Numbered from the stretch's first letter, positions 9,492 to 64,000 are shown. The stretch is DNA of 64,000 nucleotides from an uncultured Gemmatimonadota bacterium (GCA_951812955.1 OX638340.1:1120001-1184000); one strand, 5' to 3'. Translations and numbers: made by a program. Notes: generated by a model from the sequence alone, not told the origin.

Positions 9492-10714
9492 TCCGACTCC
9501 TTGCGCATGAATGGTCCGTGCCGTTCAATCCAGTCGTAGGTCTCCTGCCACGGCGCGCTGCCGTCCTCTTCCCAGATCTCCAGCCTTACGCCGCGAATAT
9601 TGCCCTCGGGAAACCCGGTCAGGCGGCTGACCGAAGGATAGCCAATGGTATGGTATACGTTGCCGCTCGGTAGCATCAACTTTCCGATATGACGTGGAAT
9701 CTCGGTCTTCGGGTTCCCCGCGATACGCACCAGTTCCGCCTCGTCCACTTCCACACCCAGTCCGGGTCCTTCCGGCACCGGTGAGCTTCCGTCAGCCACC
9801 TCGATCCGGCCGCCGGTGACGTCCTCGCCGTACTGGTCGTCCAGGTTGACCGTGTGCATCACATTGGGGATCACCGCGCCGAGGTGGAGCGCCATGGCTT
9901 TGCTAAGCGTCCCCCCGGTCAGCTGGATCACGGTGGACACATTCGCCTCGGCACAGGCGAAGCCCCGTTTCAGACTCATGCCGATACCGTGCTCGCCGAC
10001 CATGTAGGCGTCGGCGCATCCGAGCGTGATCTCCGGTCCGCCGCCGAGTTGCGGTACGTGCATGAGCAGGGGGATCGTCGTCTTTTCCCGCAGGCGGCGC
10101 CATCCGTCCACGTCGCGCCAGACCAGGGGATCTTCGATCACGCCGACGACAGGAGACTTCTCCAGGTGTTCGACTATTCTCGCCACGTCGGCGCCCGACC
10201 GGTTGTGGTTGAAATCGTAGTGCATCTTGAATCCGGGAGGCGCGACCTCCTCCACCGCGCGGTTGTGCTCGTAGACATCGAAGAACGCGCATGTGTGCAT
10301 CTTGAACGCCATGTACCCCTCGTCCGCCGCGCGCACGACCTCGGCGGCCAGGTCTTCGGGAGATGTCGAGCGTGTCCACGCCGCGACCGGCACCCGGTCG
10401 CGAACCTTCTGACCCATGAGCTTGTAGGCCGGTATTTCGAGGTGTTTCCCCATGAGATCGTACAGGGCGCCCATGAGCGCTACCGGTAGTTTGGCGTTTA
10501 TGTGGTCGAAGGGATGGCTGCCGGTCAACCGGTCCACTTCCCTGATGTCCATCGTCACATGTCCCCGGCTTTCGCCGTAACCCACCACGCCGTTGTCCGC
10601 GGTCACCTTGAATACCGTCTGCGTATCGATTCCATTGAACAGGACCTTACGGCCCTCGTTGCGGTCGGCCAACCTGGGATTGATGTGTGTAATCGCGATA
10701 TCGGTGATTTTCAT
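9488..10714 (-). CDS. Enolase-superfamily enzyme (mandelate racemase/muconate lactonizing family) with a roughly 60-aa C-terminal extension
   Basis: True start is the ATG at 10714 (MKITDIAITHINPR...); the 580-aa track ORF has an Arg/Gly-rich spurious N-terminus. Motifs LEIPAYKLMGQKVRDRVPV, MHYDFNHN, GVIEDP, PGLGVEVDEAEL. Confidence 0.85.
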   Translation of the reverse strand: MKITDIAITHINPRLADRNEGRKVLFNGIDTQTVFKVTADNGVVGYGESRGHVTMDIREVDRLTGSHPFDHINAKLPVALMGALYDLMGKHLEIPAYKLMGQKVRDRVPVAAWTRSTSPEDLAAEVVRAADEGYMAFKMHTCAFFDVYEHNRAVEEVAPPGFKMHYDFNHNRSGADVARIVEHLEKSPVVGVIEDPLVWRDVDGWRRLREKTTIPLLMHVPQLGGGPEITLGCADAYMVGEHGIGMSLKRGFACAEANVSTVIQLTGGTLSKAMALHLGAVIPNVMHTVNLDDQYGEDVTGGRIEVADGSSPVPEGPGLGVEVDEAELVRIAGNPKTEIPRHIGKLMLPSGNVYHTIGYPSVSRLTGFPEGNIRGVRLEIWEEDGSAPWQETYDWIERHGPFMRKESE

Positions 10715-10752
10715 GGCCTGTCTCGTTTCCTTCCTGTTCTGCCGGGCATTTC

Positions 10753-11625
10753 CTATGAGTTCGCCAGCGACTTCGGCGTCCCCGCCTGATTCACCCCGTC
10801 CCGCACGGTGAGGGCGATCGGCCAGTTCTGCCCGCCCCGCTTTACGTACTCGTCCTCCGCACCGCATAGCCAGGTGAACATCTGTGCGGCGGCGAGCGCG
10901 CCCTGGAACTGTTCGAATACGCCGGCCGGGGGATTGAAGTCGATCGTATTGAAATCGATATCGTCCTGTTTTACCCAGTCCCGCACGGGCGGCGTGGTCC
11001 GCCAGTAGTTGTATTTGAGCAGGTTGCGATAGGCGCTCCTGCCCCGGGGGCCCGAGGTGGCTCGCGACCGGCGGTGCCAGATGCCGTAGACCGTAAGGAA
11101 GATCGTCCCCGCCGGGGCGGCCGTAGAAACCGTGCCGCGGATGGAACCCAGGTGGGCCATCATGGGCGCCTTGTTGCGCATGAAGTGCGAACCGGGCAGC
11201 ACGACGGTCGGCCCCATGTCCCCGGTGCATTCCTCCGGATAATAGAATACCTGAAGATACTCCAGCGCCGGGGTATAGATCGTACCGCCATCCCGGTGCC
11301 AGTTCTGCGGCTTGTCATATGGCAGCGGCCCCCGGTGATTGCTGATGATGAGCGGCAGCGTGAAATCGCGCCCCAGGAGCGACCGGACGGCGCCAGCCGC
11401 CTCCGGGTTCATGAGCACGCCGTCTACGAAGAACGACTCGCCCACGATTGGCGTGGGTTCGTAAGTGCTGTCACTGCGTTCCAGATAATCGACGACCTGT
11501 TCGTTGATCTCTTTAGGAACGACTTCCGGCAGCATCAGGAAGCCGTTGCGGCAGAAATCGACCACTTCGCGGTCCGTCATGGTCGCAGCGCAATCCATTT
11601 TCTTGCCGTAGGGCACCTTTGCCAT
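10753..11625 (-). CDS. Phytanoyl-CoA dioxygenase (PhyH) family Fe(II)/2-oxoglutarate oxygenase
   Basis: Start ATG at 11625 is preceded by AGGTGGAG. Has NWHRDG (H-x-D), VVLPGSH and a distal IWHRRS histidine. Confidence 0.8.
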   Translation of the reverse strand: MAKVPYGKKMDCAATMTDREVVDFCRNGFLMLPEVVPKEINEQVVDYLERSDSTYEPTPIVGESFFVDGVLMNPEAAGAVRSLLGRDFTLPLIISNHRGPLPYDKPQNWHRDGGTIYTPALEYLQVFYYPEECTGDMGPTVVLPGSHFMRNKAPMMAHLGSIRGTVSTAAPAGTIFLTVYGIWHRRSRATSGPRGRSAYRNLLKYNYWRTTPPVRDWVKQDDIDFNTIDFNPPAGVFEQFQGALAAAQMFTWLCGAEDEYVKRGGQNWPIALTVRDGVNQAGTPKSLANS

Positions 11626-17579: not shown

Positions 17580-18287
17580 ATGAACAGGACGGCGGCCTAC
17601 ACGGTCCAGCGTGGCATACCCGTCTCGCAACTGGGCGTCGACGCGAGAGGGGCGTTTATCACGCGAACCTACACCCATCTTCTCGGGGCGATCCTGGCAT
17701 TCGCCCTGATTGAGATCTACCTGTTTCAGACCGGCATGGCGGAGTCGATCGCCCGCGTGCTGCTCAGCGGGTCCTGGCTCATCGTACTGGGCGGTTTCAT
17801 GATCCTGAGCTGGATTGCGACCCATCTCGCGCACAATGCGCAGACCAAGGGGGGTCAATACGGCGCGTTGGGGCTGTTCGTCGTGGGCGAAGCCATTATC
17901 TTCACGCCGCTGCTCTACCTTGCGGATTCCATGGCGCCCGGCGTGATCAACAGCGCCGCCACGGTTACGCTCATCGGGTTTCTCGGGCTGACGATCGTGG
18001 CCTTTCATACCCGCAAGGACTTTTCCTTCCTCGGCGGGCTGCTGCGGTGGGGGTTCATCTGCGCCCTCGTGCTGATCGTAGCCAGCGTGCTATTCGGATT
18101 TCATCTGGGAACGATCTTCACCGTGGCCATGATCGTACTGGCGGGCGGCGCGATCCTCTACGACACGTCGAACGTCCTGCATCACTATCCCGAAGACCGG
18201 CACGTGGGCGCGGCGCTTCAACTCTTCGCCTCCGTGGCGCTGTTGTTCTGGTACGTCCTGCAGTTCTTTCTGTCGTCGAGAGACTGA
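17580..18287 (+). CDS. Bax inhibitor-1/YccA family membrane protein
   Basis: [20 protein letters not shown] start, 7 TM segments, and a C-terminal DTSNVLH...[12 protein letters not shown] pattern. Confidence 0.85.
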
Positions 18288-18334
18288 AACATCTCGACGG
18301 GGCGCGTCAGTTAACCAATCGGAGAGGTACCGTT

Positions 18335-19042
18335 ATGTTCAACCGAAAGAGTCTACACGCTGCGGTGTCCATCGGCCTGATGGCCCTGGTGCCGTCGCTG
18401 TTCACACTGGCCTGCGAGGGACCGGTTGGACCGACTGGACCGGCAGGAGCTCAGGGTCCGGCTGGACCGCAAGGCGCTGCCGGATCACAGGGACCGGTGG
18501 GCACGGACGGAAGTACTGGACTACAGGGGCCGGAAGGACCGCCTGGACCGCCTGGACCGCCTGGCGAGGTAAGAGTCATCGATCTGGACCTGGTCGGTTC
18601 GTGGCGATTCGAGAGCACGGATATCGTGCAGACCCTTGCGGAGAATCTCAAGGACTACCTGATCAACGAAGCCGGCCTCGATGCGGCTACCGTGGAACTC
18701 TTACTCGCCGAGTTCTTCAGGGAGATGACGGAGGATCTCAAGAACTCGCCGATTGCGACGGTTAACCTCGCCGCGGACGCCACCTTCCTGGACGGTGACG
18801 GCGCCTCGGGGACCTGGTCGGCCAACGGTTCGACGCTGCTTGTGAAACAGGACGAGACCGTTTTTTTCCTGGGAAGCTATCGCGTGGATGGCGACGATCT
18901 GACGCTGACGCTTTCCAAGGCCCAGATGCTGCAAATGATCACCAGCGCGTCGGAGGAACCACTCGCCGAAGACGAAATCATGCTGCTTGATATCCTGTTC
19001 GGCGAAAACGGTACGGCCAACTACTTCTTCAAGCGGGTTTGA
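18335..19042 (+). CDS. Lipoprotein with a collagen-like G-X-Y stalk and a lipocalin-like head domain
   Basis: ATG at 18335 (GGAGAGG upstream). Signal peptide and lipobox ...LFTLAC, followed at once by about 16 G-X-Y triplets ([19 protein letters not shown]...[11 protein letters not shown]), then LVGSWRF... (lipocalin_4-like GTWK start). Confidence 0.8.
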
Positions 19043-51277: not shown

Positions 51278-52468
51278 TTAGTCGAAGAATCCCTGGTCGT
51301 CCTCCTTCAGGTAGGGCAGCGTCTTGTCCGGTACCAGGTCGACCCCCAGGCCGGGTCTGTCCCACACATCGATGTAACCGTCCTTCACGATCGGGTCCGG
51401 CAGGCCCTCCACGATGTCGTACCACCAGGCGGGGTTGCCGACGGGATATTCGAAGGCGATGTAGTTGGGCGGCATGGCGGCCGATGCGTGCACCAGCGCC
51501 GCCAGGCCGATCAGGCCGTCGATGACGCCGTGGGGCGCCATTAGCACGCCGTGGAGATCAGCGTATTCGGCGATCCACTTGAGCTCGGCGATCCCGCCCA
51601 CGTCGGCGGGATCGGGACCCACCACGTCCACGGCGCGTTTCTCGATGAGGTCGACGAAGTTTTCCCTGAGATAGATCTGTTCCCCCGTGTGGATGGGCGT
51701 GGACGTCTTCGAATTCACCTCCCGGTACAGGTCGGCCAGGACATAGGGCGTATAGTCTCCGGTGATCATGTCTTCCAGCCACATTATATGCAGATGTTCC
51801 ACGGCTTTTGCGAGGCGCATGGCGTCTGGAACAAGCATGCCCGGCCCGCAATCGAGCGCCAGTCCCACTTCGTCGCCGAGGACCGCTTTCATAGCCTCGA
51901 TGCAGGCCACCAGGTGCTTCAGGCCCTTTTCGGTGAGCGGGCCGCGATTGCCGTGAAATCCGTGACGCTGCAGGTCGCCGTAGAAGAAGTCGGGGACCTG
52001 GGACGGCATCTGGCTATGGAAACTGATGCCCTGTTTGATGATGGTGAATCCTTCAGGCGCCGCCTTCATCCTGGCCATGTCCTCGGCGTAGTCATCCACG
52101 GTTGATCCCTTCATGGGAAACCGTACGGCCCCGTTGTAGACCCGGACCCGGTCCCGCATCTTGCCGCCGAGCAACTTGTACACCGGCAGGCCCGCCGCCT
52201 TGCCGGCGATGTCCCACAGGGCCATCTCGATTGCGCTTACCGAGCTGCCCCACGGCTTGAAACTGCCCAGCCGTCGTATACTCGCGATGACTCTGTTTAC
52301 GTCCGTGGGATCCTGGCCGATGATGAAATCCCGATAGAAGAGGACATGGGGTTTCAGGTAGTGCTTGGAGTTCTCTATCTGTCCAAGCCCGTGGATCCCC
52401 TCGTCCGTGGTGATCCGTACCACGGGGTTCTGGCCGATCACGGCGCATTTCAGGTCGGTGATTCTCAT
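51278..52468 (-). CDS. Enolase-superfamily enzyme (mannonate/galactonate dehydratase-like subgroup)
   Basis: ATG at 52468 (MRITDLKCAVIG...). IEMALWDIAGKAAGLPVYKLLGGKMRDRVRVY, LALDCGPG, MWLEDM, IHTGEQ. Confidence 0.85.
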   Translation of the reverse strand: MRITDLKCAVIGQNPVVRITTDEGIHGLGQIENSKHYLKPHVLFYRDFIIGQDPTDVNRVIASIRRLGSFKPWGSSVSAIEMALWDIAGKAAGLPVYKLLGGKMRDRVRVYNGAVRFPMKGSTVDDYAEDMARMKAAPEGFTIIKQGISFHSQMPSQVPDFFYGDLQRHGFHGNRGPLTEKGLKHLVACIEAMKAVLGDEVGLALDCGPGMLVPDAMRLAKAVEHLHIMWLEDMITGDYTPYVLADLYREVNSKTSTPIHTGEQIYLRENFVDLIEKRAVDVVGPDPADVGGIAELKWIAEYADLHGVLMAPHGVIDGLIGLAALVHASAAMPPNYIAFEYPVGNPAWWYDIVEGLPDPIVKDGYIDVWDRPGLGVDLVPDKTLPYLKEDDQGFFD

Positions 52469-53343
52469 GCTGGATTCCCTTTCGACTGCAACCGTTTCTC
52501 CCATCCTGCCGGTTTGCCCGCTTCATCCCATGCCTTCATTTCGTCCAACAGGCGTTCAACGACTTTCTTTGGCCCCTGGAATCCTCCCTGGCGTTTCATT
52601 TCGCAGACCCCTTCCGACAACTGATCCTCGTATTCCGCTATGGGACCGGCACCGGGTGTCCAGGACGCGTAGGACGTGCAGTACCGCTGGAACATCGTGC
52701 GACGCGGCGGATCGTGCAGGGGCCAGGGGAGCGCGCCGTGACAAAGCGCTTCGGTGAAAATGACGGCGTCCCCGGCGTTGACGGGAACATTGACCACTGC
52801 AGGCGGACCGGAGCGGATGTTAATGTGCTCCGGCCGTTCGAAATAGGTCTTGTGGCTACCCGGTATGCAGACGAATCCGGCCCCGTCGGGAACGTCCACG
52901 AGGGAAATGGCCGCGTTGATGAAGGTGGCGAACACTTCGCCATCCGCCGCCTGGTAATCGTTGGCCGGGTTTCTCCACGCCCCGGAGACACCGTTGTGCA
53001 GCGTGATCTCGTCGCTGTCCGGCAGATTCACGGTGAGTGCGGACAGGAGGTGCTGGGGTCGCTGCCGGGTCAGTGCGAGCACGACGCGCATGATCGGCAG
53101 GTTAAGGACCAACCGGTCGAAAACCGGGTCGGCGTACTCGGCGTGGAGAATGGCCCGCGCGGCCGTCGATTTTTTCCTGGGATCCTCATAGGAACAGAGC
53201 GGCGGCGGCAGTTCGTCTTCGTCCATGCCGTGCCACGCGTCGCACCGGGCGATCATGTGTTCCAGATCCTCCTGGGGAACAACCCGGCGGAGAACCAGGT
53301 AACCATGCAAGTCGAACAGCCACTTTTCTTTGTCTGTGAGCAT
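52465..53343 (-). CDS. PhyH-family Fe(II)/2OG oxygenase homolog with an H-x-G variant of the iron-binding motif
   Basis: GYLVLRRVV start, ITLHNG at the position where the family has H-x-D/E, VDVPDGAGFVCIPGSHK, and distal VIFTEALCHGALP. Its stop overlaps the start of the enolase gene (ATGA). Confidence 0.75.
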   Translation of the reverse strand: MLTDKEKWLFDLHGYLVLRRVVPQEDLEHMIARCDAWHGMDEDELPPPLCSYEDPRKKSTAARAILHAEYADPVFDRLVLNLPIMRVVLALTRQRPQHLLSALTVNLPDSDEITLHNGVSGAWRNPANDYQAADGEVFATFINAAISLVDVPDGAGFVCIPGSHKTYFERPEHINIRSGPPAVVNVPVNAGDAVIFTEALCHGALPWPLHDPPRRTMFQRYCTSYASWTPGAGPIAEYEDQLSEGVCEMKRQGGFQGPKKVVERLLDEMKAWDEAGKPAGWEKRLQSKGNPA

Positions 53344-53439
53344 CGGGTGAAATTCGTTTGATGTGAACCGGGTGCCGGAATCCGTCGCGGGCGAGGCTCC
53401 ACGCTGGTCTACGCTAATTTACCAGTTTGCGGGCGCTCG

Positions 53440-54888
53440 TCAATTCACATACGCGTTGTGGAACTCGATCCACTTCGGAAGGACTTCCTCGATTACTTCC
53501 CTGGGCGGCAGGAACGCGATCCTCAGGTGACTGGTGCCCGGTTGCTGTCCGAATCCTGCCCCGTTGACCGTGACCAGCCCGGTCCGATCCAGAAGTCCCA
53601 TACAATAATCGAAATCGTCCGTTCCGTCCGGCAGTCCGTCCAGCCGGGGGAACAGGTACATCGCCCCGGTCCGCCCGAAACAGGAAACGCCGTCCATATG
53701 ATCGAATCCCGCCCTTATCATGACCGCCTTGTCGTGGAGGTCTTCGAGGATCTTCCGCCGCTCATGCGTGAAACGGCGGTAGGGCGCCGTGTTCTCCGGC
53801 GGGGGATTGACCAGCAGGTACATCATCAACTGCCCGACCGTGTTCGAGCAGATATTCACCGAAGCCTGTTTAAGCACGAGGTCCGTGAATGACAGATCGG
53901 TGTTCCGAATGCGCGGAGCGTTTCTGATCTCGAGGTATCCGCCCCGGTGGCCGCACTCGCCGTAGAATCCCTTCGAGGTGCTGTGGACGCTGAAGAGCGG
54001 TACGTCGCCCCGGCCCAGCACCCGGGCGAAGGATACGAATCCCGCGTCCGCGTCGTAGACGTTTTCCTGGTAGACCTCGTCGGCGATGATGGCCAGGTCG
54101 TTGTCCCCTGCGAAAGCGATGACCTCCCTGACGGTCTCTTCGTCCAGTACGGCGCCCGTCGGGTTTCCCGGATTGATGACCACCATGGCCTTGACGGTCA
54201 CGCCGCGCTTCCGCGCGCCTTCCAAAGACGAATCCAGCAGATTCCGGTCCATGGCCCAGCCCGATTCCTCGTCGAGGAAATAGTCGACCTGCGTGCCGCC
54301 GCAACGCTTGATGGCGGCGGAATACAGCGGATACTGAGGTATGGGAATCATGACGCCGTCGGATTCGTCGTCAATCAACAGGTCGATGACGTAACGCACC
54401 GCTTCGCTGGCGCCGTTGGTGATGAATATCTGTTCCGGATCGGAACGGGGAACAGAGCCACTGACCGCTCCGTCTCTCCGGTCGATAAATCCCGCCACGG
54501 CTTCCCGGATGAACCGCGGTCCGCTGCTGTCCGAGTAGGCGCCCATGCCGGTTTCCAACTGCGACAGGTAGTTTTCGCTGAGTTCGAGCACGTAATCGGA
54601 GTGGAAGTCGTCCCTTTCCAGTCCGTGCAGGTCAGCACCGTTGAACAGTGTTTTAAGTCGCCGTTCACGCTCGATTCGAATGGGGTGTTCGACCAGGCTC
54701 AGCACCTCCCGGTAGAAGGAGACGGGCTGCTGCCCAAGCGCCTGGGGATTGCCGAGGTTGCACGGAATGATGCGTCTGCCTTGTTGCTTCAGTTCGGCTG
54801 CCCGACTGGGAATCGGTCCCCGCACGGCGTACTCCATTTCGAGTATCCTTCGGTTGACCGTCATGTCCCGGGGCTTTATCGAACCCAT
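53440..54888 (-). CDS. Alanine aminotransferase-like PLP aminotransferase (class I/II, long eukaryote-like subtype)
   Basis: EYAVRGPI...LGNPQALGQQP start, VINPGNPTG, ADEVYQENVY, STSKGFYGECGHRGGY (PLP Lys). Confidence 0.85.
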   Translation of the reverse strand: MGSIKPRDMTVNRRILEMEYAVRGPIPSRAAELKQQGRRIIPCNLGNPQALGQQPVSFYREVLSLVEHPIRIERERRLKTLFNGADLHGLERDDFHSDYVLELSENYLSQLETGMGAYSDSSGPRFIREAVAGFIDRRDGAVSGSVPRSDPEQIFITNGASEAVRYVIDLLIDDESDGVMIPIPQYPLYSAAIKRCGGTQVDYFLDEESGWAMDRNLLDSSLEGARKRGVTVKAMVVINPGNPTGAVLDEETVREVIAFAGDNDLAIIADEVYQENVYDADAGFVSFARVLGRGDVPLFSVHSTSKGFYGECGHRGGYLEIRNAPRIRNTDLSFTDLVLKQASVNICSNTVGQLMMYLLVNPPPENTAPYRRFTHERRKILEDLHDKAVMIRAGFDHMDGVSCFGRTGAMYLFPRLDGLPDGTDDFDYCMGLLDRTGLVTVNGAGFGQQPGTSHLRIAFLPPREVIEEVLPKWIEFHNAYVN

Positions 54889-55057
54889 CCCGCAAACTCC
54901 ATTGCCAGATTCTACGTGGTCATACTGCGAACGCTACAATTTCAATCTATAGCGATCGGCAGGGAAATACAATAGGAGCGCTGTGTCAGAGGATCAATTA
55001 TAGAATAAGGTAGGTATGGGCGCTAAGTCCGCATCGTTCTTCCATGTGATCGAACTA

Positions 55058-57418
55058 TTACGCAAGATCGGGACCGGCCAGTCGGTAACCGACCCGAGGC
55101 TCGTTAGAGATGTACGTCGGGCTTCCCGCATCATCACCCAGTTTGGAGCGGAGTTTCTTCACGAAAGCATGCACAACCCGGTTGTCTTCGGAACTTCCGG
55201 ACCGCCATACGTTGCGCAACAAATAGTCGTAAGTCACGACGCGGCCGGCGTTGGTCGCAAGCACGCGTAGTAAATCGTATTCGGTTGCGGTCAGTTTCAA
55301 AGGTTCGTCCGCCAGGGTCACCCGTCGTTGCTCGAAGTCGATGACGAGATCAATCACCCGGTAGGGCTCGGGTGGACCGGCATGCCTGCGAAGCGCCGAC
55401 TGGATTCTGGCCACCAGTTCCGTAGGCGAATACGGCTTGACCACATAATCGGCTGCTCCGATCTCCAGAGCTTTGGCAATTGTCTCGTCTCTGCCATACG
55501 CGGACAGGAAGATAACCGGCTGATCAGCCATGGCCGGCACGCTTTGCATCAGTTCGATACCGTCCGCATCCGGGAGCAGCAAATCCAGTAGTACCAGATC
55601 CGGTTGACGTGATTTAATCAGACCGGGTACGTCATTGGGATTGCCGGTCACCAGCGCCTCGAAACTCGCGTCCTCGAGTATACCCCGTATCTGTTCCAAC
55701 ACCTGTGGGTCGTCATCCACCACAAGGACCAGCGGCTTCTGCCGATTTCCCGTGTCCGGGAGTCTTTGCCTCATGAAGGAGGGCAATTCGATCATGGCCG
55801 GCGCTTCATCCGCCACAGGTATCGTAAATGTAAAACGTGTGCCTAGACCGTTACCTTCGCTCTCGACCCAGATACGGCCGCCATGCGCCTCGACAAGTCC
55901 CTTGCAGATGGCCAGTCCGAGGCCCTCCCCAACCCCGCGTCCGCGATCTTCCCGTCCGCTTCGGGCAAACTTGCTAAAAATGTGCGGCAGACGCTCTGCG
56001 GGAATCCCTCGCCCTTCATCGACTACCGAAACCGCTACGAACAACCCCTCGCGTTGCGCAAGTACCTGTATGACTGACGATTCTGGCGCGTGGCGGGTAG
56101 CGTTGGACAACAGGTTGATCAGGACCTGAACTATGCGCTGCCGGTCCACCCGCACCCGAGGCAGATCAGTAGGCAGGTCAATACTGATCTGGATACGGCT
56201 CTCACTACTGAGAAACATATTCCGAGCCTGGTCCACAATGGCAGCCAGATCCGAGTACTCGGGGGATACCGACAGCGATCCCGTCTCGATATGAGCCGCG
56301 TCCAGCAGGTCGCTGATCAACTGTCTCATGTGATCGGCCTGGTCGTTGATTATGCGGAAAAGCTGCCGGGTCTCGGCCGGGTCCAGCACCGACGGGGTCT
56401 CTAGCACGGTGGCGGCACAGCCCTTTACAGAAGTCAAGGGAGCCCTGAGCTCGTGACTCACCAAGCTTAAAAACTCGGCCCGCATTCTTTCAAGTTCTTC
56501 TATCGGCGTCATATCCTGTAAGGTAACAACCAAGGACTCGACTTCTTCCTGCGGTGAACGTATAGGCGTTGCGTTGACCAGTATCGTGACCTTCCGGCCG
56601 TCCGGAACCTCAAGTACGATCTCTTCGGCGCGAACCGGTGTGGCCTCGTTCAACGCCTCAACCAATGCGGACTTCTCCAGGGCAATCGCACGCCCGTCGG
56701 TTCGCCGCGCACTCATCACGTCCAACAAATCCTCGGCGGTGTTTCCCGGTGTCATGAGATTGCCGACAATGCGTCGCGTCTCCTGGTTAAGGGATACCAA
56801 CTTGCCACTTTGGGCGTCAATTACCACTACACCAACCGGAGACGTGTCTATCAGGGCTTCCAGGTCGGCCCTGACCCGTCGCTCATCGCCGTGCCTGCGG
56901 GCGTTTGCGATCGCCGCCCCGGCCTGCGAAGCGAACAGCGACAGCATCCCTTCATCCTCACCCGTAAACCCCTGATCGGACACTTTTCCAACGAGACTGA
57001 ATATGCCAACATGCACGCCTTGATGCCGCATGGGCATGCCCAGGTAACAACCAGCCAGTACAGGGTCCGCCGGGAACCCTAACGAGGCAAGGTGAGTCGC
57101 TAGTTCCTTGAGCCTTAGTGGACGTTGGACCTGTCGAAAAAACTCCCACAGATCGTACCCAAAAGGTAGATCTGTCAGCCGCCTGTATTCTTCGGGGCTC
57201 ACGCCATATGTGACAAAATCCTGCAGGCTGCCCGTTGCATCCATTGTACAGATTGCGCCGTATTCCGCATTGGTCAACAAGCATGCGTTTTCCACGACCT
57301 CGTGCAAGACGGTTTTGATATCAAGGCTTTCGCTGATACGCACACTTGCCTGACTTAGACCTAAGAATCGCTCCTTGAGCGATTGTATCTCCGCTTGCAA
57401 CTCTTCGATTTTGGACAT
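55058..57418 (-). CDS. Cytoplasmic hybrid: GAF-PAS-HisKA-HATPase sensor kinase fused to a complete OmpR-type response regulator (REC plus winged helix)
   Basis: H-box FLSLVSHELRAPLTSV; G-boxes DEGRGIP and GLGLAICKGLVEAHGG; REC VLVVDDD...DLVLLDLLLPDADG...KP; C-terminal LTATEYDLLRVLATNAGRVVTYDYLL...VHAFVKKLRSKL...GYRL. No TM segment. Confidence 0.85.
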   Translation of the reverse strand: MSKIEELQAEIQSLKERFLGLSQASVRISESLDIKTVLHEVVENACLLTNAEYGAICTMDATGSLQDFVTYGVSPEEYRRLTDLPFGYDLWEFFRQVQRPLRLKELATHLASLGFPADPVLAGCYLGMPMRHQGVHVGIFSLVGKVSDQGFTGEDEGMLSLFASQAGAAIANARRHGDERRVRADLEALIDTSPVGVVVIDAQSGKLVSLNQETRRIVGNLMTPGNTAEDLLDVMSARRTDGRAIALEKSALVEALNEATPVRAEEIVLEVPDGRKVTILVNATPIRSPQEEVESLVVTLQDMTPIEELERMRAEFLSLVSHELRAPLTSVKGCAATVLETPSVLDPAETRQLFRIINDQADHMRQLISDLLDAAHIETGSLSVSPEYSDLAAIVDQARNMFLSSESRIQISIDLPTDLPRVRVDRQRIVQVLINLLSNATRHAPESSVIQVLAQREGLFVAVSVVDEGRGIPAERLPHIFSKFARSGREDRGRGVGEGLGLAICKGLVEAHGGRIWVESEGNGLGTRFTFTIPVADEAPAMIELPSFMRQRLPDTGNRQKPLVLVVDDDPQVLEQIRGILEDASFEALVTGNPNDVPGLIKSRQPDLVLLDLLLPDADGIELMQSVPAMADQPVIFLSAYGRDETIAKALEIGAADYVVKPYSPTELVARIQSALRRHAGPPEPYRVIDLVIDFEQRRVTLADEPLKLTATEYDLLRVLATNAGRVVTYDYLLRNVWRSGSSEDNRVVHAFVKKLRSKLGDDAGSPTYISNEPRVGYRLAGPDLA

Positions 57419-57688
57419 GTTTCCCCTCAGGGTTTTTGCAACTACGGACTATCAGTCAGATTGGTCGATTTCGCATGATTCAAATAGGCTGGGTTGACCG
57501 GGATCGTGTCACTTAAAAACACCTATTCATGAATGTTCAGCGTAAAATCACAATCATTAACCAAAATATCATTACCATGTCAGAAAAACCAGGAATAAAT
57601 GCCGTGTAATACACATTTTGGTCAGTTATACTATTGACAGTTTTCCGCCCTCCCTTGAGATCGACCCGATTTTGTTGGTGAATTAAGC

Positions 57689-57994
57689 ATGCGAAAGGAT
57701 CCCGCATTGCTGTACGCCATAGTCTTAATGAGTGATGATAACCACACCCTGACAGACTTGGATCGCATTGTCAATGCTTCCAACGTCGTACCTGCTGAAG
57801 TTCCATTCCTGAAGTTCCCCCACGTACACTTCGTGATGTATGATGGGACCTCAAAAGCTCTAAGTACCCACCTTGGTCTGGCACGAAGGAAGATCCCGGC
57901 AATCGTGTTTGAGATAACCAGGAACAGCTATGCCGGCTATGGACCTGCTGTTTTCGATACCTGGATCAGAAAAAACTCGGAAGAGATTCGTTGA
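57689..57994 (+). CDS. Hypothetical protein (101 aa), low GC
   Basis: ORF only. Divergent from the kinase gene across an AT-rich 270-bp spacer. No motif recognised. Confidence 0.35.
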   Translation: MRKDPALLYAIVLMSDDNHTLTDLDRIVNASNVVPAEVPFLKFPHVHFVMYDGTSKALSTHLGLARRKIPAIVFEITRNSYAGYGPAVFDTWIRKNSEEIR

Positions 57995-58091
57995 GAACCC
58001 TGGTCAAGTGCTCTCACATTCACATGCGAGTTTTTGCCAGTACACGAATACGTTGCTGAAGCAGCAGTCAAACTTTCGCTAAGGTGAGAAC

Positions 58092-59147
58092 ATGAATCGT
58101 GTTCTAGTCGTGCATGCGCTGTCGTTGGTGATCGGTTGTGCGGGTGACCAGGGACCGATTGGCCCCGGGGGGGAACAAGGTCCATAGAGCCTTCAATGTT
58201 CAGAGGGACCGGTAGGGCCGCAGGGCACGCGGGGCGAGCAAGGGCCGCAGGGAATAGCCGGGCCGACCGACCCACAGGGCTCACAGGGTCCACAGGGGAC
58301 TGGCGCGCCGCTGAATTGGGCAGACGTGATCGAGGAGGGGAACCTCTACGACGCGGTCTATGTGGTCGGTGTCTAGACTGAGAGTTACTGGACCATTATC
58401 GGCACGGCTTTTGCAGCCTACTACGACGACAAGATGTGGACCAACGCCCACGTCGTAAAGCGTGCTATGGAGGAAGCGCAGAATAAGATTGGCGAAGTGC
58501 GAACATTCGTGGCGCGAGCAGGAGAGCGGTTTGTGGATGAAGGGCAAGGTCCGGGATTTATCTACTGGAACGGCGCTATCATCCACGAAGACTATGATGC
58601 TGAGCAGTATCCCCATGACAGCCCCGACGTCGCCCTGCTCCGCCTGGAGGAGAATGTTACTGGACCACTGCCCGAGCTCTTGCCGCGTGAATTCAGCCAG
58701 GACCTGCGCATAGGCCAGCCGCAGGGAATATTGGGATATCCAGGCGGGCTGGGACATTAAACCCTCGAGCTCGTATTGCTGACGTTCAAAGAAGGCACGC
58801 TGTCTGCGCTGCGGCCCTTCCTGAACGAGAGCTTTGACGGAACCAATACGGGGATGTTGCTGCACTACAATTTCCTTACAGAAGGCGGGACACGCGGGAG
58901 CCCCGTCTTCGATCACAACGGTTACATCGTAGGCATCAATTTCGCCGGTCTTGATAAAGAAATCGAGTTCGGAGAGGAACTCGTCACGATTGAAACGTCG
59001 CACCAATTCGGCATACACGTGGAGGCTCTTTGGCAAATGATCGACCAGGTTGGCGGAGCGCCGGCCGTCGCCGCGCGCGTTACGGTACCGGAAGGATCTT
59101 ACGAGCCATTTCCGGCCGGCTGGATTGGTGAGACTATCGCGCCCTAG
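58092..59147 (+). pseudogene. Decayed gene: lipoprotein signal, collagen-like stalk and trypsin-like serine protease domain
   Basis: A single reading frame from ATG 58092 is interrupted by in-frame TAG (58185), TAG (58374) and TAA (58758). MNRVLVVHALSLVIGCAGDQGPIGPGGEQGP*...[20 protein letters not shown]...; protease motifs WTNAHVV (His), DVALLRL (Asp), and GGTRGSPVF where GGxSGSPVF is expected (catalytic Ser to Arg). Confidence 0.7.
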
Positions 59148-59210
59148 GAATTACAATCCGGAATTGTCCCGAGTTTTTTCAACCAATTATCCACACGAAA
59201 GGAATGAACC

Positions 59211-59762
59211 ATGAGATCCGTCCTATTTATCGTTGCCATGCTGGTTTTCACAGCCTGCGAGGGCAAGGTAGGACCGGCTGGACCGGCTGGACCGGCTGGA
59301 TCAGCCGGTCCACAGGGTGTAAAGGGCGATACCGGGTCGCTGGGACCGAAGGGTGACAGTGGTGATCCTGGACCGGCAGGGCCGGCAGGGCCGGCAGGAC
59401 CGCAGGGGCCGGCAGGACCGCAGGGGCCGACAGGGCCGGCAGGACCGGAAGGCGGTGGTACCACGGAGCCGCCACCACCACCGCCGGAGCCGCCACCACC
59501 ACCGCCGCCACCGCCGCCACCGCCGCCACCGCCGGCCGGCGACGGAGCCTGCGTAGCCGGGTTGGTCGTGAATCCGGGTGAGAGTTGCGTTTACAATGGC
59601 TACGACTTTTCCGTTAGTTCCGAAGGCAGAGGGCGCATTGCCTTTTTCTCCGCGGGAAGCGGTATAGATGCAAGGGGTACCACGATCAACGGCGTACTTT
59701 GGAACTTCCATGCAACCCGAAACAGTGGCAGTAGCAGTTGGACCATTCATTCTGCTGATTGA
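59211..59762 (+). CDS. Lipoprotein with a collagen-like stalk, poly-proline linker and small Cys-containing C-terminal domain
   Basis: [16 protein letters not shown] lipobox, then about 21 G-X-Y triplets, [27 protein letters not shown], and a roughly 70-aa C-terminal domain with 2 Cys. Confidence 0.75.
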
Positions 59763-60263
59763 ATGGTTTCACCAGGTACGCTTCATCTCAATGGTTTCCT
59801 CTTCATATGGTGTCAACCAAATCTGTGTGCGAAACACCGCTGTCGGTAACCTGGCTGGAACGGAGTAACAATCGTGGTCGGTGAATTGTATCGGTTAATA
59901 AGTTGCATTGCGGCTTTCTGGTTTTGGGCGGATCCTTACCGTGCAACAACGATAGCGGGGTCGAGTCGTTATCTGTTCGTGCGATGGTTCTGTTCGTCTT
60001 GACTCCCAGACCGGCGAAGGCAAGGGAAGCGGGAGTTCGCGCGACGAAGCCTTGTTGTCCGCTTTTCCGATTGTTTGTTCTAAACTCAGTATCGACAGCA
60101 AAACACTCAGTCGATGTGAACAGAACTGGATTTCGAGAACGCCAGACTTTCGGGAACGTGACCATTGTAATCCCTGCTGAGAAGATTGTCACATGCTTTG
60201 AGTCTTCTTGAGGATGAAGTTTATCAATGAACGAAATTCCAATGCAAATGGAGGTTGATAAGC

Positions 60264-61333
60264 TGTAGTGCACTCCAAAATGGGACAAGTAGTTAAGCTA
60301 CAGGTTTAAACAGGTGGTTTCATTTGCTCGAACTCGACCGAAGGCGTGTAGCTTAAGGCGGGGTGCAAGCGTTTACGATTGTAGAGCTTGTAGATGAAGT
60401 AACCGATGCGTGATCGGGCTTCTTCGAGGGATTCGTACTCGTAGAGATAGCCCTCCTCGTATTTGAGCGTCCTGATGAAGCGCTCTGCTTTGGCGTTGTC
60501 ATAGGGGTTATCGCGCCGGCTCATGCTGATTCTAATACCGGCCTTTTTGTGGGTTTCGACATAGGCTTTGGAGGCGTACTACACGTCCCGGTCGGAGTGA
60601 TGTACCAAGCCCTTTGGTACCGATCTGGATGCCAGGGCGCTGTCCAAGGCATGAAGGGCAAGACCTGCATCGAGGGTTCGATTCAAAGCCCAGCCGATGC
60701 ATTTTCTGCTGCAGGCGTCAAGGACCACGGCCAGATAGATCCATTCGCCGGCCAGGCGGATGTAGGTGATTTCGGTCCCCCAGAGTTGATTGACTCCGAT
60801 TGTGTTCAGTTCCGGAACCAATTGGCGTAGAAGGCACGATCAGGGTTCGAGTCGGTGGTCGTTACGAAGACCTTGAGTCGCAGGGCAATCCGGTTGTCTT
60901 CGTACATGAGGCGCAGGACGCGCTTATGGTTTCAACAGGTAGAAAAGGCGTCTGAGTGTCCTAGTCAAAGAACGGTAGCCTTAGGAAGACCAGGTAAGGG
61001 AGAGCTTGTGTATCATGTCCCGCAGTTCAAGGGCCGGATCCATACGGCCTCAGAGACCGAGGTAGTAGCTGGATCGACCGATCGAGAGCGTCCTGCGAAT
61101 CCGGGTGACCACGAGACCGTCTACTGAGGGCGTAATTGGTGGCGCCACCTGTGAATCCGCTTGGGATGAACCTAGTGTTCCGCGGCTGACTGAATGATAG
61201 ATTTACCCGAATCGGCTTCCTAAAGGACTTGGAGCTTGAACTCACGGGTGAACAGACGGCGTTTCAGAGTCATGAAGCGCCTCCTCGATCGGTAGGAAGC
61301 TTAACTCTGTCTCCCAGTCAAGGGTGCGGTACG
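60264..61333 (-). mobile_element. Degenerate IS3-family insertion sequence with imperfect terminal inverted repeats of about 40 bp
   Basis: One end is 60264..60302, TGTAGTGCACTCCAAAATGGGACAAGTAGTTAAGCTACA. The other end, about 61293..61333 (...AGCTTAACTCTGTCTCCCAGTCAAGGGTGCGGTACGA), is its imperfect inverted copy. Transposase fragments lie between. At about 1.07 kb it is shorter than typical IS3 elements. Confidence 0.75.
60306..61273 (-). pseudogene. IS3-family transposase (orfA/orfB) inactivated by stops, a frameshift and a likely deletion
   Basis: orfA-like MTLKRRLFTREFKLQVL*EADSGKS... The DDE core NQLWGTEITYI...LDACSRKCIGW...HHSDRDV*YAS...MSRRDNPYDNAKAERF has an in-frame TAG at 60579-60581 where Q is expected, and a 1-nt frameshift near 60822. 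Confidence 0.8.
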
Positions 61334-61388
61334 ATTTAACGTAAACTGACAGATGAGCCTGCAACAATCAACAAGAGGCAAGGAAACC

Positions 61389-64000
61389 ATGCCCTTGATT
61401 TACATTCGTGCCATACCCGTGTTCATATGTCTTGTATTGTTCACTCTGACCACCTGCGGCAAGGACAGCCCCACCAGACCGAAGCCGCCAGATCCACCGC
61501 CGCCAGTAGTGCCCGTAGCCACCCGCATTGACATCACTCCGCCTTCTGCCACGTTGAACTCGGTTGGCCAGACTATTCAACTCAACGCAAGAGTCCTGGA
61601 TCAGAACAACGCGCCAATTAGTGGCGCAGCCGTGACATGGACCAGCAGCGACAACGGCGTGGCTACCGTCACCGTCCAGGGGTTGGTAACTGCGGTAAAG
61701 AACGGCACGGCACGGATCACAGCCCGATCAGGTAATATCTCTGCAAATGCGAATGTCACTGTGTTACAGACAGCCGGTAGTATCGTTATCGAATCGGCTA
61801 TGACGACGCTAACAGCCATCGGTCAGACCGTCCAGCTGACGGCGAATGTACTGGATCGTAATGACAAGCCGGTAGCCGGTGCTGTCGTGACCTGGACGAG
61901 CAGCGATGCGTCCGTAGCAACGGTCAACGAACAGGGGTTGGTGACGGCCGTCAAGAGTGGCGGCACACGGATCACGGCACGGTCAGGCAGCGCCTCAGCA
62001 GGCATCACTGTTACGGTAATGCAGTCGGTAGCAAGTATCGTGATAGAGCCTGAGATGGCGACGCTCATGTCGATCGGCGAGACCGTGCAACTCACCGCCA
62101 CCGTTCTAGATCAGAACCGGCAACCAGTAGATGATGCCGTCGTCACCTGGCAGAGCAGCGATGAGGAAGTGGCCACCGTAAGCGCTGCAGGACTCGTTAC
62201 CGCCATCGGCAACGGCATGGCAACTGTCACCGCCAGATCAGGCAACGCCTCGCAGACGGCAACCTTGACTGTGACGATCCTTGATACACGACGCGACCGA
62301 GAAGCCCTTGCCGCACTGTATCATAGTACGGATGGACCGAATTGGACCAACAACACGAACTGGCTGAGCGATGCGCCTCTAGACTCATGGCATGGCATAG
62401 GAACTACCACACTTGGAGAGGTTCAGTATCTGAATTTGGGGGAGAACAATCTCCACGGCATCATCCCACCTGAAATAGGCAAACTTCAAAAACTGACAGT
62501 ACTGGCGCTCTACGGCAATAGTTTGACCGGCAACATCCCGCCCGAAATCGGACAGTTACAGAACCTGACAGATCTTAATCTCGGCGACAACGAGTTGAGC
62601 GGCCCTATCCCCACTGAAATAGGGCAACTTCAAAAACTGACAGGTCTTACTCTCGCCGGCAACCAGTTGAGCGGTCCAATCCCCCCTAATATAGTGCAAT
62701 TGCTGGAACTAAAATTCCTGTGGCTCGGCGGCAACCAGTTGAGCGGTCCTATCCCCACTGAAATAGGGCAACTTCAAAAACTGACAACTCTATGGCTAGG
62801 CGCTAATCAACTGACCGGCAACATCCCGCCCGAAATCGGACAGTTGCGAAACCTTACTGACCTAAATCTTGATTTTAACCAGTTGTCTGGATCCATACCC
62901 CCCTTAATCGGACAACTACAGCATCTGAAATTCCTGCGGCTGAATGGCAACCAGTTGACTGGATCCATTCCGCCCGAAATCGGACAGCTTAGCATGCTTA
63001 GGTTCTTGAACATGGCCTTCAATCCCAATCTTTCGGGGCCATTACCGGTAACAATCACCTCTCTTTCCAACATGGAATCCCTGAGTTTGCACTACACTCA
63101 AGTATGTATTCCTCCTACCGCCCAATTCCAGTCATGGTTAGACGGGATAGAAAACATAAGAGGCGATATTTCTAGCTGTCCAGGGCCAGAGGGACCAGTG
63201 GAACCGGAAGAACCGGAAGAACCGGAAATGCCGCCTCCTGTCGGAGAGCGTCTGGACGTGAGGATTGTTTATTTTGTTCCTGCAAATCATACTGGATACC
63301 CGAACATAGATGCCAAGATAGATTCGTTGGTCAACATCGTCAAATTGACTTATGCGGAGATATTTGAATTTCATGGCTTCGGCGATAGAACCTTTCAGCA
63401 CGAGCAAAATGCGGATGGCACGGCCAGGGTATATCATGTGAAGGGCCAATACGATGGCGAATACTATTCCAGCGAAACATTTTTTAAGGTTATACATACC
63501 GAATTGGAACAGATATTCGATTTAGAATCGAATATTTACTGGGTCGTATTGGATGCTATCGATGCAACTGTAGATGGTTATTGCGGGCAAGGGTATGGTG
63601 ATCTTCCTGAGGGCGGCGCGTTTTTAATACCCGGACCAAACGACTACTGGTTGGAGGATCGCGGGTGGAGTTGTTTCAACCCATCAGTTGCATCCCACGA
63701 AATCGGACATTCCTTTGGTCTAACCCATGACCTGCTCAGAGACGAAGTGCGTGTCGAGTCCTCATATCAAGATGACTGGATGATTACTTCGTATTGTGCC
63801 GCCGAATGGATGTCGGTACATCCATTCTTCACCGGCGAACCAACCACGGGGAATGACAATGAGGGTGAAATAAGTCTAAGGTCGATTTCTGATGCTTCAT
63901 CCGAGACTATCCGCCTGGTTTTCGATGTGAGCGACCCCGATATGCTGCACCAGGCTCAACTTCTTGATAGAAACGGAGAAACGATAGCCTACCGTGGATT
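61389..64000 (+). CDS. Large lipoprotein with 3 Big_2 Ig-like domains, about 9 plant-specific-type LRRs and a metzincin (HExxHxxGxxHD) protease domain; 3' end beyond the window
   Basis: Not in the ORF track (open at the window edge). Hand translation from ATG 61389 shows no stop to 64000. MPLIYIRAIPVFICLVLFTLTTCGKD lipobox; three repeats of ...SIGQTVQLTA.VLD.N...V....VTW.SSD..VATV...GLVTA...G.A.ITARSG; LRRNT-like DREALAALYHSTDGPNWTNNTNWLSDAPLDSWHG; 24-aa LRRs L..L.L..N.LSGPIP.EIGQLQ.L; HEIGHSFGLTHD. Confidence 0.85.
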   Translation, partial: MPLIYIRAIPVFICLVLFTLTTCGKDSPTRPKPPDPPPPVVPVATRIDITPPSATLNSVGQTIQLNARVLDQNNAPISGAAVTWTSSDNGVATVTVQGLVTAVKNGTARITARSGNISANANVTVLQTAGSIVIESAMTTLTAIGQTVQLTANVLDRNDKPVAGAVVTWTSSDASVATVNEQGLVTAVKSGGTRITARSGSASAGITVTVMQSVASIVIEPEMATLMSIGETVQLTATVLDQNRQPVDDAVVTWQSSDEEVATVSAAGLVTAIGNGMATVTARSGNASQTATLTVTILDTRRDREALAALYHSTDGPNWTNNTNWLSDAPLDSWHGIGTTTLGEVQYLNLGENNLHGIIPPEIGKLQKLTVLALYGNSLTGNIPPEIGQLQNLTDLNLGDNELSGPIPTEIGQLQKLTGLTLAGNQLSGPIPPNIVQLLELKFLWLGGNQLSGPIPTEIGQLQKLTTLWLGANQLTGNIPPEIGQLRNLTDLNLDFNQLSGSIPPLIGQLQHLKFLRLNGNQLTGSIPPEIGQLSMLRFLNMAFNPNLSGPLPVTITSLSNMESLSLHYTQVCIPPTAQFQSWLDGIENIRGDISSCPGPEGPVEPEEPEEPEMPPPVGERLDVRIVYFVPANHTGYPNIDAKIDSLVNIVKLTYAEIFEFHGFGDRTFQHEQNADGTARVYHVKGQYDGEYYSSETFFKVIHTELEQIFDLESNIYWVVLDAIDATVDGYCGQGYGDLPEGGAFLIPGPNDYWLEDRGWSCFNPSVASHEIGHSFGLTHDLLRDEVRVESSYQDDWMITSYCAAEWMSVHPFFTGEPTTGNDNEGEISLRSISDASSETIRLVFDVSDPDMLHQAQLLDRNGETIAYRG

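Follow-up and report, generated by a model that had tools for sequence, protein, structure and literature searches.

Bacterial pseudogenes that arose by nonsense and missense mutation have been catalogued in host-associated bacteria (PMC6054270, PMC2916853). The gene described here resembles the members of these sets: it is a full-length relic with premature stops and a lost catalytic residue, it shows an excess of nonsynonymous changes and a drift from GC to AT, and a degraded insertion sequence (IS) adjoins it. It differs from them with respect to indels, which are common in the catalogued sets, whereas this copy has no frameshifting indel; the difference is within chance.

The fold of the protease family concerned is that of the HtrA/DegP proteases (S1C) and the V8/Esp glutamyl-endopeptidases (S1B), with which an intact homolog shares the chymotrypsin fold according to its structure model. 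Unlike these proteases, members of the family also have a lipobox and a collagen stalk, and the copy studied here has lost the Ser. HtrA proteases are trimeric, and a trimeric state is also expected of a collagen stalk. The second likeness is to the collagen-like surface proteins Scl1/Scl2, BclA and Lcl, in which a G-X-Y stalk bears a globular head at the cell surface. Here the anchor is a lipobox instead of an LPXTG or exosporium attachment, and the head is a protease instead of an adhesin domain. NCBIfam collagen-adhesin models and a PDB BclA chain match the repeat region weakly, with scores far under the family cut-offs.

We analysed a stretch of 64,000 nt from an uncultured Gemmatimonadota bacterium (GCA_951812955.1 OX638340.1:1120001-1184000), called the window in the following. 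One frame in it is, with high confidence, a non-functional pseudogene; the gene would have encoded a serine protease exported and anchored by a lipid, and point mutations probably disabled it (Table 1). A previous sequence-only reading had described an unbroken frame with in-frame TAG, TAG and TAA codons, intact His and Asp motifs and a Ser motif with CGC, and the translation confirmed all of these. Pfam recognises Trypsin_2 (PF13365) in residues 104-282 with 57.4 bits (cut-off 27.6). The stalk reaches 21.0 bits with the Collagen model (PF01391), which is under the cut-off of 27.2, and its repeats are interrupted. Two residues of the His/Asp/Ser triad are present, and the third is replaced.

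Table 1. Features of the protease locus and its surroundings in the window (positions counted from the first nucleotide of the window).
Feature	Position	Strand	Remarks
ORF of 101 aa	57689..57994	+	Same length in L020; tblastn 92.7%, aligned identity 0.94
Shine-Dalgarno-like AAGGTGAG	58081..58088	+	3 nt 5′ of the protease-frame ATG, retained; read from the sequence
Very probable pseudogene, lipoprotein with collagen stalk and Trypsin_2 serine protease	58092..59147	+	351 codons and terminal TAG, single unbroken frame; translation, Pfam, homologs
Lipoprotein signal peptide	58092..58139	+	Lipobox VIGC at its end; Cys16 aligned with the family's near-invariant Cys
Degraded collagen G-X-Y stalk	58140..58307	+	Holds stop 1 and three Gly-to-X breaks
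Stop 1, TAG, codon 32	58185..58187	+	Gln (CAA/CAG) in homologs
Gly break S33, AGC	58188-58190	+	
Gly break C36, TGT	58197-58199	+	
Gly break D60, GAC	58269-58271	+	
Stop 2, TAG, codon 95	58374..58376	+	Glu in closest homologs (L017 GAG)
Catalytic His120, TNAHVV	58449..58451	+	Kept
Catalytic Asp179, SPDVALL / DVALLRL	58626..58628	+	Kept
Stop 3, TAA, codon 223	58758..58760	+	Glu (GAA) in L017 and 5/6 outgroups
Arg268, CGC	58893..58895	+	At the nucleophile Ser position of GGTSGSP; frame reads GGTRGSPVF
In-frame two-codon gap, GLDKEIE--FGE	58962..58973	+	Near 58967/58968; from the alignment
Partner gene, collagen-stalk lipoprotein	59211..59762	+	Appears intact; Pro-rich (poly-Pro) linker of ~24 residues and 72-aa C-terminal module
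IS3-family remnant	60306..61264	-	HTH_Tnp_1 (3e-7) and rve (1.6e-21)
Intact ORF of at least 870 aa with lipoprotein signal	61389-64000, past window end	+	Three Big_2, leucine-rich-repeat region, HExxH (reprolysin-like) motif

Relatives of the frame were searched for among 5.8 billion proteins, which returned 642 of them. The best full-frame matches are intact genes with 58-68% identity and E-values to 8e-153 at 100% coverage, and one relative that matches over the protease head only reaches 78%. Because of these full-length homologs and the Trypsin_2 score the frame is not a chance match. No relative above 68% (78% over the protease head) was detected in the protein search or in the scans of genome and metagenome contigs, and among the genomes found with them none is near enough to share the lesions or to give a date for them. 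Almost all full-length matches pair PF01391 with PF13365. The few named ones are annotated as "trypsin-like peptidase domain-containing protein" and belong to Gemmatimonadota or Latescibacterota MAGs. The loci from species-representative genomes bear isolate names of sponge and coral studies (IRC1_bin_16, SB0665_bin_8, APA_bin_41, Plut_88884), and every retrieved locus with a stated source is from Gemmatimonadota or Latescibacterota associated with sponges or corals. We found no description of this protease architecture in sponge symbionts in the literature, which does not prove that there is none.

The intact relatives begin with a lipoprotein signal peptide, followed by a G-X-Y stalk that varies in length and by a Trypsin_2 head with the His/Asp/Ser triad. 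In an alignment of 86 family members the triad is invariant and the lipobox Cys near-invariant. The gene is uninterrupted, open from the stalk to the C-terminal tail (...W.GET..P), at L001-L006, L009, L010, L012, L014-L017 and L019-L023, where the contigs cover L012 and L015 in part, and for L017 the statement applies to the sequence after the N-terminal collagen part. Another locus, L007, was left out of this list; the translated match region has no internal stop, and neither of the catalytic motifs matched the search patterns. P0012 and P0021 had been candidates for N-terminally truncated copies and were rejected as an effect of gene calling or a scaffold gap, L001 being intact and L017 containing a run of N inside the collagen repeats. 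The family is multi-copy: three collagen-stalk copies (L002, L009, L014) are located on OZ241920.1, a genome of 3.9 Mb. A Trypsin_2 lipoprotein without a stalk, which has the NWADVIE...GGTSGSP framework in common with the family, is encoded 1.5 kb downstream of one of them (L002:8637-9743). In one uninterrupted homolog (P0016), the catalytic His is exchanged for Tyr (WTTAYVA) and the nucleophile Ser for Asn (GGTNGSP); this protein may be a "pseudoprotease" without catalytic activity whose open frame has been kept.

For the intact homolog P0001, AlphaFold gives a model with a mean pLDDT of 86.4. Foldseek finds HtrA/DegP and V8/Esp proteases as its best matches (E ~5e-11, probability 1.0, 16-21% identity), and sequence-level matches to solved structures are marginal (E ~2e-3). 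No PDZ domain was found in the window frame with Pfam or in the precomputed Pfam annotation of the homologs. The family is therefore not part of the HtrA family, and the likeness exists at the level of the fold only. The intact protein is most likely a trimeric, membrane-tethered extracytoplasmic endopeptidase that is held off the membrane on its collagen stalk.

Alignment of the window frame with 19 homologs places its three stops opposite Gln, Glu and Glu and Arg268 opposite the Ser of GGTSGSP. At the latter position 18 of the 19 homologs have Ser, and the codon in L017 is AGC. The three stalk positions S33, C36 and D60 are GGC or GGT in the homologs. For the two breaks next to the first stop this agrees with the sequence-only reading, which had derived the stop itself from a Glu codon (GAG). 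Its ancestor is instead likely to have been Gln, with a C-to-T change from CAG to TAG, because L019 and L017 have CAA and L020 has Q at this position. The second and third stops would each go back to a G-to-T change, and Ser268Arg to an A-to-C change. The same reading had attributed the inactivation to the stops and the Ser-to-Arg change only. This is too narrow, since the three Gly breaks and six changes at positions conserved in 7/7 homologs are also present. Its statement that indels are absent applies to frameshifts, of which there are none, and does not extend to the two-codon gap in the alignment. At this site 16/19 homologs have both residues and three (P0013, P0016, P0017) have one; since it is a variable loop, the gap may predate the inactivation. 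Taken as it stands, the window copy would be incapable of the predicted protease role: the stalk is broken, two stops split the head, and the nucleophile is lost.

A positional match, L020 (LXNJ01003730.1), was found in the metagenome scan. Its upstream flank runs parallel to that of the window for 5.8 kb, with 86.5% nucleotide identity, and its protease gene (L020:6001-7089) is intact, encodes the triad and shares the unusual N-terminus of the window copy (CAGDQGP.GPGG). On OZ241920.1 (L002) a gene for a sensor kinase/response regulator is likewise located upstream of an intact protease gene. Because of these two loci the positional homolog looks functional elsewhere. Comparison with orthologs had been proposed as a check in the sequence-only reading, and at the related loci inspected, including the syntenic L020, the gene is uninterrupted. 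About 173 bp that L020 has 3′ of the small ORF and 5′ of the protease leader (L020:5740-5912) are missing in the window at about 57998/57999, and about 70 nt directly 5′ of the protease start are conserved in both. Gene remnants were searched for in 57400-58095 and 59760-60310; this revealed only the conserved 101-aa ORF, which matches no Pfam or NCBIfam model, and nothing in 59763-60305.

Comparison of window 52465-57994 with L020:197-5735 showed that the locus is a mosaic. The synonymous divergence (dS) is 0.92 for 52465-53343 and 1.04 for 53440-54888, drops to 0.144 for the sensor kinase/response-regulator hybrid (55058-57418) and to 0.059 for the 101-aa ORF, and is 0.59 for the protease. 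The sequence comparison suggests that the kinase segment was exchanged recently between lineages. The neighbouring sensor kinase has a length of 786 aa. L017, which is not syntenic, is a nearer relative of the window's protease domain than the syntenic L020 is, so the locus has recombined, which complicates the branch estimates that follow.

Rates were compared with L017, the closest relative at the DNA level (81% identity over 942 nt), as sister and with six outgroups. Three-taxon Nei-Gojobori estimates gave a branch dN of 0.072-0.090 for the window and of 0.037-0.055 for L017. Branch dS was 0.15-0.30 for the window and 0.19-0.34 for L017; which of them is larger varies by outgroup, and there is no consistent difference. 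With L019 as outgroup, the Tajima relative-rate test counted 30 amino-acid changes in the window against 13 in L017 (p=0.014), 43 against 23 changes at nonsynonymous sites (p=0.019), and 29 against 22 at synonymous sites (p=0.40). All three of the nearest outgroups give a significant signal, and the more distant L004, L003 and L006 a weaker one in the same direction (p 0.065-0.12). Where L017 agrees with at least 4/6 outgroups, the window has 22 changes versus 9 (p=0.029). At positions conserved in 6/6 outgroups there are seven versus none (p=0.016), namely P138T, a P-to-Q change in EGPGPG, L211Q, T213I, P230L, S268R and an A-to-T change near the C-terminus. The polarised nucleotide changes on the window branch comprise 31 from GC to AT and 11 from AT to GC, with G-to-A (12), C-to-T (9), C-to-A (7), A-to-G (6), T-to-A (5) and others. 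The GC-to-AT direction is the one expected of unselected bacterial mutation. Selective constraint on the window copy is relaxed.

We propose that the window copy first lost selective constraint in this genome, and that unselected point mutations, mostly from G/C to A/T, would then have built up. Those accumulated would include the three nonsense codons, the replacement of the nucleophile Ser by Arg, the three Gly breaks in the stalk and the replacements at several conserved positions. No product would be expected from the gene today. Decay by point substitution had already been put forward in the sequence-only reading; the intact relatives, the excess of nonsynonymous without an excess of synonymous changes and the ordinary use of stop codons bear it out. 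The label "young" does not hold, as an unselected divergence of ~3% indicates that the pseudogene is not especially young.

Alternatively, the organism might carry an intact gene, with the stops and unusual residues introduced by consensus errors or by a chimera of strains or paralogs. The multi-copy family, with its three loci on OZ241920.1, and the mosaic structure relative to L020 make a mis-assembly of paralogs conceivable. A chimera of intact paralogs would, however, yield neither stops nor a Ser-to-Arg change nor Gly breaks. About 27 excess changes would need to be errors crowded into 0.8 kb (~3%), whereas ~57 kb upstream (1-57.4 kb) and the region 61.4-64 kb, with the gene of at least 870 aa, read as uninterrupted long ORFs. 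Moreover, the changes carry a biological GC-to-AT bias (31:11), and the three stops do not have a sequence context in common that would suggest a systematic base-calling error. An artefact is thus very unlikely, and the mutations appear to be real.

The partner gene downstream of the pseudogene was suspected of being truncated, since its C-terminus is unlike the CARDB heads found in related proteins. The suspicion was dismissed: the 72 C-terminal residues are 81% identical to those of P0122 and stop at the same residue, and in P0122 this module comes after a CARDB-like region. Protease genes of the family usually have a collagen-stalk lipoprotein gene behind them; this order is conserved in L003, L004, L017, L019 and L020, and in L003, L004, L017 and L019 the collagen-stalk lipoproteins 3′ of the protease gene carry interchangeable heads.

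The adjoining IS remnant mentioned in the sequence-only reading was found and probably derives from the IS3 family, with which it shares HTH_Tnp_1 and rve; in contrast to that family it is heavily degraded and has no detectable terminal inverted repeats. Its OrfB is 44% identical to an IS3-family transposase of a Rhizobium tropici plasmid over 272 aligned residues (~55% over the rve core). OrfB contains at least four in-frame stops and two frame changes and OrfA is shortened, so that the element is more decayed than the protease pseudogene. There is no evidence that the IS3 remnant caused the inactivation of the protease gene, from which it lies 1.1 kb downstream, past an apparently intact gene.

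About 27 excess unselected changes fall in the head (834 nt, 3.2% per site), which corresponds to ~34 over the whole gene. With a chance of 3.8-5.1% that a substitution creates a stop, ~34 unselected substitutions are expected to yield 1.3-1.7 stops, and the probability of three or more is 0.14-0.25. The expected number of indels is 1.7-5.1, and the probability of no frameshift is 0.03-0.30 (~0.09 at ~0.1 indels per substitution). The IS3 remnant serves as an internal control here, as its ratio of at least four stops to two frame changes gives P ~0.30 for zero frameshifts among three lesions. Zero frameshifts in ~1 kb are thus at most mildly unusual, as the sequence-only reading had also judged. 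A targeted or episodic hypermutation, by a deaminase, a burst of oxidative damage or a diversity-generating retroelement (DGR), would produce substitutions without indels, and indeed all lesions are substitutions, several of them G-to-T or G-to-A on the coding strand, and the probability of zero frameshifts falls to 0.03 at a high indel rate. However, the value of ~0.30 from the IS3 control requires no such process, and the spectrum is mixed, neither A-specific as in DGRs nor with a single deaminase signature; on this ground the DGR and deaminase types were rejected. A mixed spectrum of this kind resembles the general GC-to-AT bias expected in bacteria. Hypermutation is therefore even less likely than an artefact. 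Programmed recoding, in which the in-frame TAG and TAA would be read through or reassigned and a full-length protein made, is practically negligible: it would suit a frame preserved over 1 kb behind a retained Shine-Dalgarno-like site, but two kinds of stop codon are involved, neither of them TGA, the residues aligned with the stops in homologs are plain Gln or Glu, TAG, TAA and TGA all end long ORFs in the window (at least 200 aa; TGA 24, TAG 9, TAA 6), the gene's own TAG is located at the conserved ...ETIAP terminus of the family, the window encodes a single tRNA, an ordinary tRNA-Trp(CCA), and no suppressor tRNA, a scan of 57300-61400 revealed no Rfam element, and a read-through product would still have a broken stalk and no nucleophile Ser, with relaxed constraint throughout, all of which speaks against the read-through raised in the sequence-only reading.

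The window copy is thus an ordinary pseudogene of a widely distributed protease family that is, as far as we could find, so far uncharacterised. In itself this carries little weight, as it adds one more bacterial pseudogene. It is of modest use as a marker: sponge-associated Gemmatimonadota and Latescibacterota otherwise conserve this surface protease family, in several copies, and the present lineage is losing one of them. The relic also shows, on a small scale, how unselected mutations fall in this organism, with a bias from GC to AT and few indels. The intact family and the locus might constitute a host-interaction module at a recombination-prone site, where alleles are exchanged and copies are lost lineage by lineage, the window copy being one such loss. 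We regard this as a tentative and rather unlikely reading; its part on recombination is based on the range of dS to L020, from 0.06 to 1.0 across neighbouring genes. Much less likely, the preserved frame would reflect residual expression. The protease family may merit study apart from the window locus, and the family and the mosaic locus are the sole aspects that are perhaps worth more work.

Annotations of the window should give 58092-59147 as a pseudogene, and neither its 108-aa and 123-aa fragments nor an antisense ORF of 251 aa that overlaps it (58281-59036, minus strand) should be annotated as genes. This antisense ORF, which has a counterpart over the intact gene in L002 (5899-6879, minus strand), most likely arises as a side effect of the high G+C content of the coding sequence. 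A further collagen-repeat protein in the window (18047-19042, plus strand, 331 aa, Pfam Collagen 1.4e-8) came to light because the protease stalk matches it weakly in tblastn. A metallopeptidase is encoded near the L002 protease as well (9903-11369). The G+C content is 0.50-0.58 at window positions 56001-64000 and ~0.61 in most of the remaining window; this low-G+C stretch coincides with the pseudogene, the IS remnant and the genes for surface proteins.
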